Assembly: GCA_965153355.1 (NCBI GenBank)
Contig: OZ231126.1
Coordinates: 15,562,001-15,626,000, forward strand
Direction: 5' to 3'
DNA from: Flaccisagitta enflata
Taxonomy: Eukaryota
DNA length: 64,000 bases
Below are positions 23,691 to 54,779 of this stretch, piece after piece. The notes beneath the pieces are model-generated. The model was given only the letters and a program-made list of their open reading frames with translations. It was not told the origin of the DNA and did no database searches. The position numbers and the translations under genes are program-made. The number at the start of each line of letters is the position of its first letter. Position 1 is the first letter of the stretch.

Positions 23691-26600
23691 ACATGACGTA
23701 GCCCACATACCTTTCACGCTTTCAGACCCGACGGTGTCAAAAAACGCAAATTGACTCAATTCACATGATCTCTCTCTCTTTCTCTCTCTCTTTCTCTCTC
23801 TCTTTCTCTCTCTCTTTCTCTCTCTCTTTCTCTCTCTCTCTCTCTCTCTCTCTCTCTCTCTCTCTCTCTCTCTCTCTCTCTCTGCTCTTTTTATCCGTTG
23901 TCAGTCTCTCTGTCCTTCTGATACACGAGTTTGGGTGTTTCAAATCTAAGTCGTTTTTATATATTTAGTCCGTAATTAAATAACCATGAGTTTATTTCCT
24001 CGTTATATGTATATCTGTTGATTCATGCGGGATATTATTATCATTATTATTATTATTATTTATCATTATCTATCTTTTGTTTTCGTTTTTAATCTTCTTC
24101 GTGCGATATTTAATGATAGTAGTTCTGGTTGCGGCCACTCGGCATCTCTCTGATCTCTCCTTCATTTTCCCAGGGAAGTCCCACTTTTAAAAGCCTTTTA
24201 TTAGTTTTTTTGTCGTTTCGCAATGTTCAAAAGAGAGAGAAAGAGAGAGAGAGAGAGAGAGAGAGAGAGAGAGAGAGAGAGAGAGAGAGAGAGAGAGAGA
24301 GAGAGAGAGAGAATATCATAGAACACATACGATCTTCGTAACTCTTTCTCTCTCTCTCTTCTTTGTCTTTCTTTGGTTGTATTTGTTCTTTCTTTCTTTC
24401 TTTCTTTCTTTCTTTCTTTCTTTCTTTCTTTCTTTCTTTCTTTCTTTCTTTCTTTCTTTCTTTCCCTATTTCCTTCTTTCTCCAGTCATCTCCTTCTTTT
24501 CCTCTCTTTCTCTTTCTTTCACTCTCCACTCTCCTCCCTTTCGCACCCACACATATATACAGTCAGTCTGTGGACAGATTACGATTTCAGGTCCCTGCTT
24601 TATAACTTCTTCACGTCTTTGTAGAGAAATAAAACTAAATTTTCTCTGGAAAAGAAAAAAGAATTTTTATTTTTCCTGGAATATTCACAGAAAAACTCTT
24701 TTTGTCCATTGTGTCAAGTTTTTTCAAGGAAACTGCTTATATATATATATTTGGATAGATTGTAAATGGAGGGAAAAGAAGGACCCGTGGGTTCACACGA
24801 GCGTCTGTTCTGCTGGGGGGGGGGGGCGGGGGAAGAGATCTAAGGGTAAGGGGAAAGAGGAAAGGAGAGGGAAGCGGGGGTTGAGAAGGTAGTAGAGTAT
24901 GATTTGAGGGAAAGATTGGGGTTGAAGAAATCCCAAAGAGGAAACTGTAAAATATGCCTGAGAAAAAACAAAAGGAACTTCTGTGATTTTCGTTTGAGAG
25001 AGAGGTGCCTTTTATGTTCGAGATCGTCCTCCACGGACAAAAAAAAATATATGTAAAAGGATGATATCTTTTTAACGAGTGTCTCTTTGATGTTGTTTGA
25101 TCGCTTTGTGGGTGTATCTTTTTCTCACCGGGACAGTTGAGGGCGGGGAAGGCGAGGGAGGGGGAAAAAAGAAAAGAAAGCGGTCCAGCAAGAGATAAGA
25201 TGAAAAGAGGTTATGGGTTCGTGAAAAAAGAGGCAGACAGAAGGGTTTCCTCTCTTTATACCGTGGCGCCGCGGTTAGGGAGTAAAGGGACTCAGGGTGC
25301 AGTCAAGTCTTAGCAAGGTGCGAGGAGGGGGGAGGGGGGGAGGAGTTAGGATCGAGAGAGGAGGAGGGGAGGGAGAAATGGAGAAGAACTTGTCGGAGTT
25401 TTGTTATGGGAGGAGGGAGGGAGAGGGAGAGAGATAGAGTTGATCGTTTGGGGGGAGGGGGGGAGGAGCAGACTGGCGCCACTGCGTAGCGTCGCTCGCC
25501 AGTATTTGTGAGAGAAACTCGTCTTTTAGTTTTACAATTTTTTTTTTCCCTTCAATAAGCATTTACTGCCAATTGCTGCTTTCCTTTTCTTTGATATTTT
25601 TTTTTTTGATTGACGCCTTAGTCATGCACTTCCGCCCATCATCGATATCTTCATCGTTACCATTATAATCGTCATAATTCGCAGCTGACGTCGATTTTGT
25701 TTTTCTTTTATTTTTTTTAAATCTTTTGTGGCTATTCTATCCGGAAGAAGTAGGAGGAAATTGGAAGAGGAAAAAGAGGAAGAAGGAGAAGAAGAAGAAG
25801 AAGAAGAAGAAGAAGAAGAAGAAGAAGAAGAAGAAGAAGAAGAAGAAGAAGAAGAAGAAGAAGAAGAAATAGAAAGAAGAGGAAGAAGAGGAAGAAGAGA
25901 AGAAGAGAAGGAAGAGGATGGGGTGGGGGTGGAATGACAGAGACACGAAGGTTTTGGGGTGAAAGATATATCTGGATTTGATAATGTGTCAATGACGCGC
26001 AAGAAAAGAAAGACTTGTCAATTAACGATTGACACACGAGGCGCTATAGTTTGGCAGTTGATGTATCACTCATGAAAATGTTTATAAACGGGATCAAATA
26101 TATTCCCTTTAAAAAAAAAAAAACTTCAAGCCACGTTTGATTTAATGGCGGTTTCTGTAATCTGAAGTATAAACATAACCACGCGTTGATTAGTGAATGA
26201 GAGAGAGAGAGAGAGAGAGAGAGAGAGAGAGAGAGAGAGAGAGAGAGAGAGAGAGAGAGAGAGAGAGAGAGAGAGAGAGAGAGAGTTGACAGATTTTTCC
26301 CCTTTACTCATGAGAAAACGTCAAAAAAGGGACAAAGAAATGAAATATATGAATATGCTTTTATCTCGTGGGCGGAAGGTGTTAACAATGTGTCCCTTTC
26401 ACCTTTTCTTTTAATTCTGACCATTCTTCCTCACTTCTGGTGTTGTCGTTGTTGTTGTTGTTCACCTCCTAAGAAGTCATTTTGTGCCCGTCTTTTGTGG
26501 GAGCGAGTTTCAACCCCCATGGCGATCCCCTGATTTGTTTTTTGTTCTCCGCGCTTTCACTCAAAAGAAAAATACACGCACTAATCGCGAAACACACACA

Positions 26601-27126
26601 CACACACACATACACGTCAACACAAAGTGACACGATCACCAATTCTTCTTCACCAGTACAACAACAACAACGATCGGAATCAAGGAAAACAAGAACAACT
26701 AATACAAACAAAATTGCCATCTGCTTGACGACAACGAAAATGGCGAAAGCAAGAGAGAGAGAGAGAGAGAGAGAGAGAGAGAGAGAGAGAGAGAGAGAGA
26801 GAGAGAGAGAGAGAGAGAGAGAGAGAGAGAGAGAGGATCGTGTTTGCGTCCCATCTCCCAGCCAGTGTGGAACCAGATTCTGCGGTTTTATGGTTCAATG
26901 GCCGAATCTATACACGATTCTCTGATCACCACGTTGAAACTTTCTTCTTCCTGTCCATATTTCATATTCTCTTATTCTCTTTGTTCGTTTGATTGTCTCT
27001 CTCTCTCTCTCTCTCTCTCTCTCTCCCACACAGCTGCTGCGAGTTGTTGGCAAGCAAAAAGTGAGAGTGAGAGAATTTGTCAACTCCGCGTAGGTTTTTT
27101 TTTCTTCTTCTTCTTTTTTTCTTTGA

Positions 27127-52195: not shown

Positions 52196-54779
52196 AAAGA
52201 AAAAAAGAAGAAGAAAAAAAAACCCCAACGCGGAGTTGACAAATTCTCTCACTCTCACTTTTTGCTTGCCAACAACTAGCAGCAGCTGTGTGTGGGGAGA
52301 GAGAGAGAGAGAGAGAGAGAGAGAGAGAGACAAACGAACAAAGAGAATATGAAATATGGACAGGAAGAAGAAAGTTTCAACGTGGTGATCAGAGAATCGT
52401 GTATAGATTCGGCCATTGACCCATAAAACCGCAGAATCTGGTTCCACACTGGCTGGGAGATGGGACGCAAACACGATCCTCTCTCTCTCTCTCTCTCTCT
52501 CTCTCTCTCTCTCTCTCTCTCTCTCTCTCTCTCTCTCTCTCTCTCTCTCTCTCTTGCTCTCGCCATTTTCGTTGTCGTCAAGCAGATGGCAATTTTGTTT
52601 GTATTAGTTGTTCTTGTTTTCCTTGATTCCGATCGTTGTTGTTGTTGTTGTACTGGTGAAGAAGAATTGGTGATCGTGTCACTTTGTGTTGACGTGTGTG
52701 TGTATGTGTGTGTTTCGCGATTAGTGCGTGTATTTTTCTTTTGAGTGAAAGCGCGGAGAACAAAAAACAAATCAGGGGATCGCCATGGGGGTTGAAAATC
52801 GCTCCCACAAAAGACGGGCACAAAATGACTTCTTAGGAGGTGAACGGGAACAACAACAACGACAACACCAGAAGTGAGGAAGAATGGTCAGAATTAAAAG
52901 AAGAGGTGAAAGGGACACATTGTTAACCCCTTCCGCCCACGAGATAAAAGCATATTCATATATTTCATTTCTTTGTCCCTTTTTTTGACGTTTTCTCATG
53001 AGTAAAGAGGAAAAATCTGTCAACTCTCTCTTCTCTCTCTCTCTCTCTCTCTCTCTCTCTCTCTCTCTCTCTCTCTCTCTCTCTCTCTCTCTCTCTCTCT
53101 CTCTCTCTCTCTCTCTCTCTCTCTCTCTCTCTCTCTCTCTCATTCACTAATCAACGCGTGGTTATGTTTATACTTCAGATTACAGAAACCGCCATTAAAT
53201 CAAACGCGGCTTGAAGTTTTTTTTTTTTTAAAGGGAATTTGATCCCGTTTATAAACATTTTCATGAGTGACACATCAACTGTCAGACTATAGCGCCTCGT
53301 GTGTCAATCGTTAATTGACAAGTCTTTCTTTTTTTTTGCGCGTCATTGACACATTATCAACTCCAGATGTATCTTTCACCCCAAAACCTTCGTGTATCTA
53401 ACTATCTATCCTTCCACCCCCACCCCATCCTCTTCCTTTTTCTTCTTCTTCTTCTTCTTCTTCTTCTTCTTCTTCTTCTTCTTCTTCTTCTTCTTCTTCT
53501 TCTTCTTCTTCTTCTTCTTCTTCTTCTTCTTCTTCTTCTTCTTCTTCTTCTCCTTCTTCTGCTTCTTCCTTTTTTCCTCTTCCTATTTCCTCCTACTTCT
53601 TCCGGATAAAATAGCCACAAAAGATTTAAAAGAAAAACAAATCGACGTCAGCTGCGAATTATGACGATTATAATGGTAACGATGAAGATATCGATGATGA
53701 GCGGAAATGCGTGATTAAAGCGTCAATCAAAAAAAAAAAAAAAAAAAAAAAAAAAAGAAATATCAAAGCAAAGGAAAGCATCAATTGCCAGCAAATGCTT
53801 ATTGAAGGGAATAGAAAAAATTGTAAAACTAAAAGACGAGTTTCTCTCACAAATACTGGCGAGCGACGCAACGCAGTGGCGCCAGTCTGCTCCTCCCCCT
53901 CCCCCCCGAAACGATCAACTCTATCTCCCTCCATCCCTCTTCCCATAACAAAACTCCGACAAGTTCTTCTCTATTTTTCCCTCCCCTCCTCCTCTCTCGA
54001 TCCTAACTCCTCCCCCCCTCCCCCCTCCTCGCACCCGCCCTTCTTCGCTAAGACTTGACTGCACCTTCAGTCCCTTTACACCCTAACCGCGGCGCCACGG
54101 TATAAAGAGAGGAAACCTTTCTGTCTGCCTCTTCTTTCACGAACCCATATAACCTCTTTTCATCTTATCTCTTACTGGACCGCTTTCTTTTCTTTTTCCC
54201 CCTCCCCCGCCTTCCCCGCCCTCAACTGTCCCGGTGAGAAAAAGATACACCCACAAAGCGATCAAACAACATCAAAGAGACACTCGTTAAAAAGATAACA
54301 TCCTTTTATATATATTTTTTTTTGGTCCGTGGAGGACGATCTTGAACATAAAAGGCACCTCTCTCTCTCTCTCAAACGAAAATCACAGAAGTTCCTTTTG
54401 TTTTTTCTCAGGCATATTTTACAGTTTCCTCTTTGGGATTTCTTCAACCCCAATATTTCCCTCAAATCATACTCTCACCCTCAATACTCTACTACCTTCT
54501 CAACCCCCGCTTCCCTCTCCTTTCCTCTTCCCCCTTACCCTAAGATCTCTTCCCCCGCCCTCCCCCCCCCACAGCAGAACAGACGCTCGTGTGAACCCAC
54601 GGGTCCTTCTTTTCCCTCCATTTACAATCTATCCAAATATATATATATAAGCAGTTTCCTTGAAAAAACATGACACAATGGACAAAAAGAGTTTTTCTGT
54701 GAATATTCCAGGAAAAAAAAAGAATTCTTTTTTCTTTTCCAGAGGAAATTTAGTTTTATTTCTCTACAAAGACGTGAAG

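Follow-up and report, generated by a model that had tools for sequence, protein, structure and literature searches.

Results

The hedgehog gene and its inverted duplication

The window analysed here, a stretch of 64,000 nucleotides (nt) from Flaccisagitta enflata (assembly GCA_965153355.1, contig OZ231126.1, positions 15,562,001 to 15,626,000 of the forward strand), carries a hedgehog gene whose second exon, together with long pieces of both flanking introns, is repeated in reverse-complement orientation further along the same gene. The left arm of this inverted duplication spans 13,033 nt on the forward strand (24609-37641) and is made up of the last 9,007 nt of intron 1, all of exon 2 and the first 3,764 nt of intron 2. 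The right arm, its reverse-complement copy of 15,739 nt on the minus strand (39041-54779), lies wholly within intron 2, as does the spacer of 1,399 nt between the arms (37642-39040). The layout given by the original prediction, two collinear reverse-complement arms of about 13 and 15.7 kb around a spacer of about 1.4 kb, was confirmed by self-BLAST, by a repeat search and by local alignment. In the self-BLAST of the window, minus-strand high-scoring segment pairs of at least 350 nt were kept and shorter ones, mostly microsatellite noise, were removed, which left 13 collinear minus-strand pairs running from 24609/54779 inward to 37225/39146 (90.7-97.6% identity, 484-3251 bits). A sensitive local alignment extends the arm homology to 37641/39041, where it ends, and the same chain is recovered by the repeat search (487 nt at 96%, 303 nt at 100%, 332 nt at 99%, and others), which returned 115 repeat pairs in all. 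Both arms fall between the end of exon 1 (9985) and the start of exon 3 (61319) and thus sit wholly inside hedgehog, as had been proposed; the 64,000 bases contain no N and no lower-case letters.

Judged by its Pfam domains, the gene is hedgehog, with the signalling domain split across exons 1 and 2 and the Hint domain in exon 3. Positions 1-77 of HH_signal (PF01085) are matched in the open reading frame (ORF) ending at 9985 (E 2.3e-29) and positions 76-161 in exon 2 (ORF at about 33.6-33.9 kb, E 3.3e-45), and positions 2-212 of the 213 of Hint (PF01079) are matched in the ORF from 61306 (E 4.4e-60), where the GCF start is read in ...KSGGCFAG.... All three exons are on the forward strand: the 3' coding part of exon 1 (9650-9985, from CGPGRG to MMTK, placed by Pfam, with a GT donor at 9986), the intact 262-nt exon 2 (33616-33877, placed by alignment and Pfam, with an AG acceptor and a GT donor), and exon 3 with the Hint, or autoprocessing, domain (61319-62046, placed by Pfam, with a CAG acceptor at 61316-61318). 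Intron 1, on the same strand, measures 23,630 nt (9986-33615), the final 9,007 nt being those inside the left arm, and intron 2 measures 27,441 nt. Read directly from the sequence, the splice borders are AAG/gt at 9985/9986, cag/CGA at 33615/33616, CCG/gtgagt at 33877/33878 and cag/AT at 61318/61319; these canonical sites join the exons in frame, the leftover G of exon 2 and the AT of exon 3 restoring a codon. The hedgehog reading frame of about 2.1 kb in exons 1, 2 and 3 is unbroken, so base accuracy looks good. Skipping of exon 2 would shift the frame, as originally stated, since 262 is not a multiple of 3. The hedgehog transcription unit can be deduced from this gene structure, and every hedgehog pre-mRNA would carry both arms.

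Upstream, the exon-1 frame (8831-10009, forward strand) is open for 392 codons, with about 150-290 residues of Ser/Thr-rich low-complexity sequence preceding a hydrophobic stretch and CGPGRG, and with no Met near the signal-like segment; this may reflect an unrecognised upstream exon or, alternatively, an extended N-terminus that contains an internal signal. At exon 2, an (AC)n tract ends 9 nt upstream of the acceptor.

Divergence between the arms

Aligned by MAFFT, the left arm and the reverse complement of the right arm share 12,324 aligned columns with 431 mismatches (297 of 9,690 outside microsatellites) and are separated by 105 indels, 50 of them mostly microsatellite and 55 not. When microsatellite-masked columns and columns within 5 of a gap were excluded, the arms differed at 255 of the remaining 9,095 clean sites (2.8%), by 145 transitions and 110 transversions (a ratio of 1.32), with 42 of the differences in CpG context; among small non-microsatellite indels, 6 of 24 were of homopolymer type.

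The large differences in arm length are due to three to four transposon insertions in the right arm, each with an exact empty site in the left arm. A 581-nt insertion (39511-40091; empty site 36858/36859) has perfect terminal inverted repeats of about 28 nt, the ends being read by eye, and a TA duplication, and appears Tc1/mariner-like, of the type of a miniature inverted-repeat transposable element; it has no second copy in the window. A 1,052-nt insertion (50798-51849; empty site 27438/27439), likewise without a second copy in the window, is flanked by the 8-bp target-site duplication TTTTGCCG, and its length is typical of hAT-type elements. A 743-nt insertion (40606-41348; empty site 36294/36295) resembles at its start the elements at 3790-3877 and 4090-4166, and a 172-nt right-arm insertion carries a 4-bp duplication. 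The 743-nt insertion is one copy of a dispersed repeat family found on both strands, whose translations share the motifs ...RSVGPSV... and ...GRTDGRTDG...; its sites include 3632-4175 and 40530-40883 and, for example, 1000-1250, 17356-17625, 37284-37559, 57054-57395 and 62034-62330.

Because of the 2.8% of substitutions, the few homopolymer indels, and the transposon insertions with target-site duplications and empty sites, the differences between the arms are mutations and not sequencing noise, the arms being natural, diverged DNA lineages. A palindrome arising from a fold-back, a missed adapter or a chimeric read was considered and rejected: it predicts near-identical arms without a spacer, and what is found is 2.8% divergence, transposon insertions and a 1.4-kb spacer.

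Divergence is distributed as a mosaic: in 500-nt bins over left-arm coordinates 24609-37641, it ranges from 0.5% (35109-35608) to 6.5% (29109-29608). This suggests patches of gene conversion or, for allelic arms, coalescence times that differ along the sequence; if the duplication is real, the patchiness is most simply explained by gene conversion from arm to arm. The figure of 2.8% is a minimum divergence if such conversion occurs, and gives no age in years.

The mirror copy of exon 2

The exon-2 copy in the right arm (43816-44075, minus strand, 260 nt, antisense to hedgehog) includes both splice-site sequences in mirrored form, in agreement with the earlier claim that exon 2 and both its splice sites are mirrored: it amounts to a near-perfect antisense copy about 10 kb downstream. 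It differs from the intact exon by a 2-bp deletion opposite 33800-33801, in a non-repetitive context, and by one substitution, opposite 33822, which changes the third position of a codon (GGT to GGG) and is synonymous in the original frame. The Pfam match to HH_signal extends only to position 139, the point at which the frame breaks. Being antisense to hedgehog, the mirror exon cannot be spliced in as a coding exon, and it looks like a non-functional, frameshifted antisense pseudo-exon. From the 55 non-microsatellite indels per 9,690 aligned nt, a neutral copy would be expected to have about 1.5 indels per 262 nt. A frameshift is thus expected of a paralogous pseudo-exon and unexpected of an allele of an essential gene, and null alleles of hedgehog should seldom be encountered. 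The likeness of the two exon copies to a pair of alleles is mixed, as a single synonymous substitution in 250 sites fits alleles and a frameshifting 2-bp deletion does not.

Spacer, direct repeat and joints

The spacer consists of a unique part s1 (37642-38089), a (CT)n tract (38090-38342), a further unique part belonging to a direct repeat (38343-38641), an (AAG)n tract (about 38652-38766) and a second unique part s2, which extends to 39040. The first copy of the direct repeat, X1 (38158-38641, forward strand, 484 nt), takes in part of the (CT)n tract and about 300 nt of unique sequence; the second, X2 (54782-55263, forward strand), begins 2 nt past the outer end of the right arm. X1 and X2 form the sole long direct repeat in the window and are 97.3% identical, with 3 mismatches and 2 gap columns in the 301 columns of the unique part. 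With A and A' for the left and right arms and U and D for the flanks, the layout reads U - A - s1 - (CT)n - X1 - (AAG)n - s2 - A' - (CT)n - X2 - D, so that the inverted block s2-A' is bracketed by direct copies X1 and X2. The junction placed by the original prediction at about 38641 marks the end of the first copy of the 484-nt direct repeat; the inner ends of the homology are at 37641 and 39041.

Both ends of the inverted homology are sharp, and the inner end (37641/39041) is flanked by unique sequence on both sides. We considered whether the arm homology runs on into the spacer and rejected this, as s1 compared with the reverse complement of s2 gives a local score of 20, not above shuffles (mean 11.4, maximum 23), and the two are unrelated in either orientation. 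Neither s1 nor s2 has a second copy in the window, and no source was found there for s2, which measures about 390 nt with its (AAG)n tract. At the outer end, nothing beyond the right arm matches the sequence that precedes the left arm, and what follows X2 bears no resemblance to s2. Among proteins of 24-79 amino acids, there was no candidate for an ORF crossing the joint at 39041.

Pairing potential of the transcript

The two arms offer 11,893 paired positions, with 170 perfect runs of at least 21 nt, 72 of at least 50, 22 of at least 100 and 4 of at least 200. The longest, of 302 nt (33498-33799), runs through the (AC)n tract and the acceptor into exon 2, of which it covers 184 nt. Perfect runs of 302, 20 and 104 nt contain the exon together with its two splice sites, the last of these runs spanning the donor. 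When a 321-nt segment with the exon was cofolded with its 319-nt mirror, the gain over separate folds was -489 kcal/mol, against a mean of -12 kcal/mol for 10 shuffled mirrors, and pairing of exon 2 and its splice sites, as originally envisaged, is thus strongly favoured in silico. Perfect antisense in the right arm exists for 200 of the 242 21-mers of exon 2, compared with none of 316 in exon 1 and none of 680 in exon 3, which served as controls.

The antisense of the acceptor lies 10,460 nt past the acceptor and that of the donor 9,937 nt past the donor, and exon 3 is 27.4 kb from the donor. Co-transcriptional splicing may take out an intron such as intron 1 before downstream sequence is transcribed. 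Intron 1 could therefore be removed, with 9 kb of the left arm, before the mirror exists, so that a realistic stem in cis would be formed by exon 2 and 3.8 kb of intron 2. The multi-kb hairpin originally proposed is accordingly within the pairing capacity of the arms in silico, but a full 13-kb stem in cis appears less likely than one of about 4 kb made up of exon 2 and the intron-2 part.

Sequence collections and other features of the window

A search of a protein collection with the exon-2 ORF returned 1,247 hedgehog fragments, the best 91% identical (P0001), and found neither this exon 2 itself nor its mirror. Among metagenome contigs, a pattern that catches exon 2 either intact or with the 2-bp deletion matched no stretch, nor did a 30-mer beside the joint of s2 and the right arm. 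The exon-3 product is matched in independent ENA contigs (P0121-P0125) at 97, 75, 69, 67 and 52% identity, and its best named proteins are from an annelid (42%), a brachiopod (40%) and an onychophoran (38%); this hedgehog lineage thus seems well covered by environmental assemblies, and the protein collection seems to hold no named references for it. Public runs sharing words with positions 35001-45000 number 17. Among them are two DNA runs under the organism's own label (word shares of 0.57 and 0.39), five marine metagenome runs (0.18-0.28) and five of RNA (0.06-0.12), besides a raw poly-A RNA run; none of these shares was used as evidence on junctions, expression or habitat, for which the marine runs would be a weak hint at best.

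Microsatellites (period 1-6, at least 12 nt) make up 22% of the 64 kb, which accounts for the noise in the self-BLAST and for the 115 repeat pairs. The commonest are (CT)n/(GA)n, (AC)n, (CTTT)n and (AAG)n; tracts of 100-300 nt are numerous and turn up repeatedly at the ends of the arms and at exon borders. A second inverted pair (7123-7411 and 20347-20623, about 277 nt, 85-89% identity) consists of purine- or pyrimidine-rich tracts, (GAA)n-like in one and (CTT)n-like in the other, and probably reflects mere microsatellite complementarity. No Rfam family reached its gathering score in the window.

Discussion

A real duplication or a misplaced haplotype

We consider it quite likely that the inverted duplication is real DNA, because its breakpoints are sharp and lie in unique sequence, no N is present, X1 and X2 bracket the inverted block, and the exon copy is frameshifted. 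At the seamless inner joint unique sequence meets unique sequence, so the assembler would have needed reads containing that joint. According to PMC9516828, false haplotype duplications are mostly separated by assembly or depth gaps and stand at haploid depth, and the principal kind of duplication error is the false heterotype duplication. The corresponding alternative for hedgehog is one that we hold to be unlikely: the right arm would represent the second haplotype of this 13-kb region, which escaped purging and was set in reverse beside its allele, X1 and X2 would be overlapping allelic contig ends, and the joints would have been closed in or next to microsatellites. The hedgehog repeat does resemble the false heterotype duplications described in that source in having two diverged copies side by side, a divergence in the range of heterozygosity and an affected exon. 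Tracts of (CT)n and (AAG)n adjoin the outer joint (54779/54782) and the centre, and a microsatellite content of 22% makes assembly hard. It differs from them, however, in that no N lies between or beside the copies, in that the copy is inverted (the word 'inverted' is absent from the main text of PMC9516828, which to that extent offers no precedent for the backwards form), and in that its breakpoints are sharp against unrelated unique sequence. As s2 is unrelated to s1, a second haplotype would need structural differences of its own exactly at both ends. Furthermore, (CT)n is not self-complementary, so that by this reasoning an overlap inside (CT)n cannot join a strand to its reverse complement, and a frameshift in a conserved exon would mean either a null allele or a base error, though the other exons are clean. 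Falsely joined haplotigs, a caveat raised by the original prediction itself, are thus the less likely reading given the junction anatomy, and other errors take what probability remains.

Several observations nevertheless weigh against a real duplication, or against our account of it. The joints on the outer side adjoin microsatellites, where assemblers err. A divergence of 2.8% and the presence or absence of transposons are within the reach of haplotypes in a very polymorphic animal. The exon-2 copy has a substitution at only 1 of 250 clean sites, and that one synonymous, compared with 254 of 8,845 elsewhere (Fisher p=0.011), and over the 2.1-kb tract 33498-35609 the arms differ at 23 of 1,664 sites (1.4%) against 232 of 7,431 (3.1%; p=3.6e-5); low divergence of the exon and the adjoining 2-kb tract is the pattern left by purifying selection on two alleles, and under a real duplication it needs either gene conversion or selection on the copy. 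The reality of the duplication was, moreover, judged on junction anatomy alone. As to origin, we infer a template-switch mechanism, in which s2 is without a source in the window and the joints are too diverged for microhomology to be judged.

Proposed origin

If the duplication is real, a replication-type event with two template switches would fit the layout. From a starting arrangement U-A-s1-X-D, replication would have passed through X and then, at the distal end of A, moved to the opposite strand with the addition of s2; A would next have been copied backwards to its start, after which a second switch, back to where X begins in the (CT)n tract, would have let replication continue. The product would contain A once more in inverted form, X twice in direct orientation and s1 only once, which is what is observed. 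Intron 2 would thereby have gained, 1.4 kb downstream of the original, a backward copy of 13 kb that takes in the end of intron 1, the whole of exon 2 and the beginning of intron 2. Its later history would comprise 2.8% of drift, several transposon insertions and, probably, patches homogenised by gene conversion between the arms. Replication-based complex rearrangements with inverted duplicated segments, such as duplication-inverted triplication-duplication (DUP-TRP/INV-DUP) structures, are explained by template-switch or fold-back models. Those models share with the hedgehog repeat an inverted copy beside the original, a single-copy spacer, a short direct duplication at the second joint and an insert that has no local source; they differ in that they describe recent, disease-associated events defined by breakpoint sequencing, whereas the hedgehog event would be old (2.8%).

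Possible consequences for the hedgehog transcript

Long double-stranded RNA (dsRNA) is a known substrate of ADAR and Dicer, and the hedgehog pre-mRNA could in principle fold exon 2 and its donor into such RNA. The reading that we favour, to which we give slightly better than an even chance as a whole, is that of a real and fairly old inverted segmental duplication that is tolerated, with a duplex that forms only partly and an effect that is small. Within this reading, the duplex would be handled by the ordinary cellular machinery for dsRNA, and the persistence of the arrangement in an essential gene suggests a small net effect; judged from the sequence, it is most likely a tolerated structural feature and not an evolved regulator.

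Self-attenuation of hedgehog, as originally suggested, we regard as quite improbable. In that case the duplex would be diced into small interfering RNAs (siRNAs), hyper-edited by ADAR or would hide the exon-2 donor, singly or together, and so lower hedgehog output. By the gene structure, both arms should lie in one transcription unit; exon 2 alone of the three exons has 21-mers with perfect antisense, and the longest perfect run covers its acceptor; the donor waits for 27.4 kb of intron, and its antisense is there after 9.9 kb; and the exon copy has diverged less than the sequence around it, as could follow from selection for pairing. Drosophila hairpin-RNA (hpRNA) loci derived from an exon of their target and placed on existing transcription units are documented (PMC10317233). 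However, the low divergence extends into 2 kb of neighbouring intron, which speaks for gene conversion and against selection specific to the exon, persistence over 2.8% of divergence in an essential gene argues for a small effect on output, and helicases that unwind such structures are known (PMC4710571). That the arrangement has become a fixed autoregulatory hpRNA, with a functional exon for one arm, self-directed siRNAs or throttled splicing, and conversion keeping the pairing sharp, strikes us as highly improbable. Hardly any probability attaches to back-splicing, in which the 9-kb intron-1 part would pair with its mirror in intron 2 and give a circular exon-2 RNA at the expense of the mRNA, as in mouse Sry. 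Complementary sequence is indeed present in both introns flanking exon 2 (24609-33615 against 44076-54779), and PMC4201285 describes a circularising Sry exon between inverted repeats that exceed 15 kb, with 30-40 nt able to be enough in other cases. But exon 2 and both its splice sites sit inside the duplex and the loop is the spacer, which is not the Sry-type geometry, and intron 1 could be removed before its mirror is transcribed.

An effect at the level of DNA, through doubled intronic enhancers or through recombination between the arms, seems very improbable. About 9 kb of inverted sequence, roughly 97% identical, lies outside the two exon copies, and the patchiness of 0.5-6.5% per 500 nt suggests that the arms exchange sequence; gene-disrupting inversions between inverted repeats are known in human disease genetics. 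Through a crossover between the arms in their intron-1 portions, the segment from exon 2 across the spacer to the mirror exon would be inverted, bringing the frameshifted copy into sense and creating a null allele. The assembly, however, displays the functional orientation only, and no second arrangement was seen in it.

Relation to known systems

By its sequence organisation, the hedgehog repeat is to be classed with intragenic inverted duplications or potential hairpin loci. Drosophila hpRNA loci such as Dsim-hp58 are also inverted repeats with an exon fragment (exon 2 of the progenitor in hp58) near their progenitor and on a pre-existing transcription unit (PMC10317233), and in both cases siRNAs perfectly antisense to the parent mRNA could arise, for hedgehog from 200 of the 242 21-mers of exon 2. 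The loci described there are nevertheless separate transcripts that act in trans and in which both arms are copies (PMC10317233), whereas in hedgehog one arm is the working exon in its own gene, the arms measure 13-16 kb and are mostly intronic, and the case is known from sequence alone. Mouse Sry (PMC4201285) is likewise a developmental gene with multi-kb inverted repeats (more than 15 kb, a comparable length) in one transcript, which is circular; there the exon lies in the loop, in contrast to hedgehog, where exon 2 and its splice sites lie in the stem and the loop is the 1.4-kb intronic spacer. Maize Mu killer, in the account of PMC3440606, is a natural partial inverted gene duplication with passive read-through from a flanking gene and a hairpin RNA of about 4 kb as the proposed trigger of silencing. 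By the same account, unlike the hedgehog repeat, it acts in trans on a transposon, which it silences in a plant that has RNA-directed DNA methylation, and it is not embedded in its target gene (PMC3440606).

Significance

Should the repeat instead prove to be an artefact, it would be a useful case of a gap-free inverted haplotype duplication giving a false 'exon gain' and a false inverted repeat in annotation. If the duplication is real, an essential morphogen gene has long been tolerant of a 13-kb antisense copy of exon 2 and its introns within its own transcript. It would also carry a standing hazard, as the frameshifted exon could take the place of the intact one if the arms recombined. A real repeat would be a natural test of how animal cells stop long intramolecular dsRNA from triggering RNA interference, editing or mis-splicing, and may be an early hairpin-RNA birth caught inside its progenitor gene.

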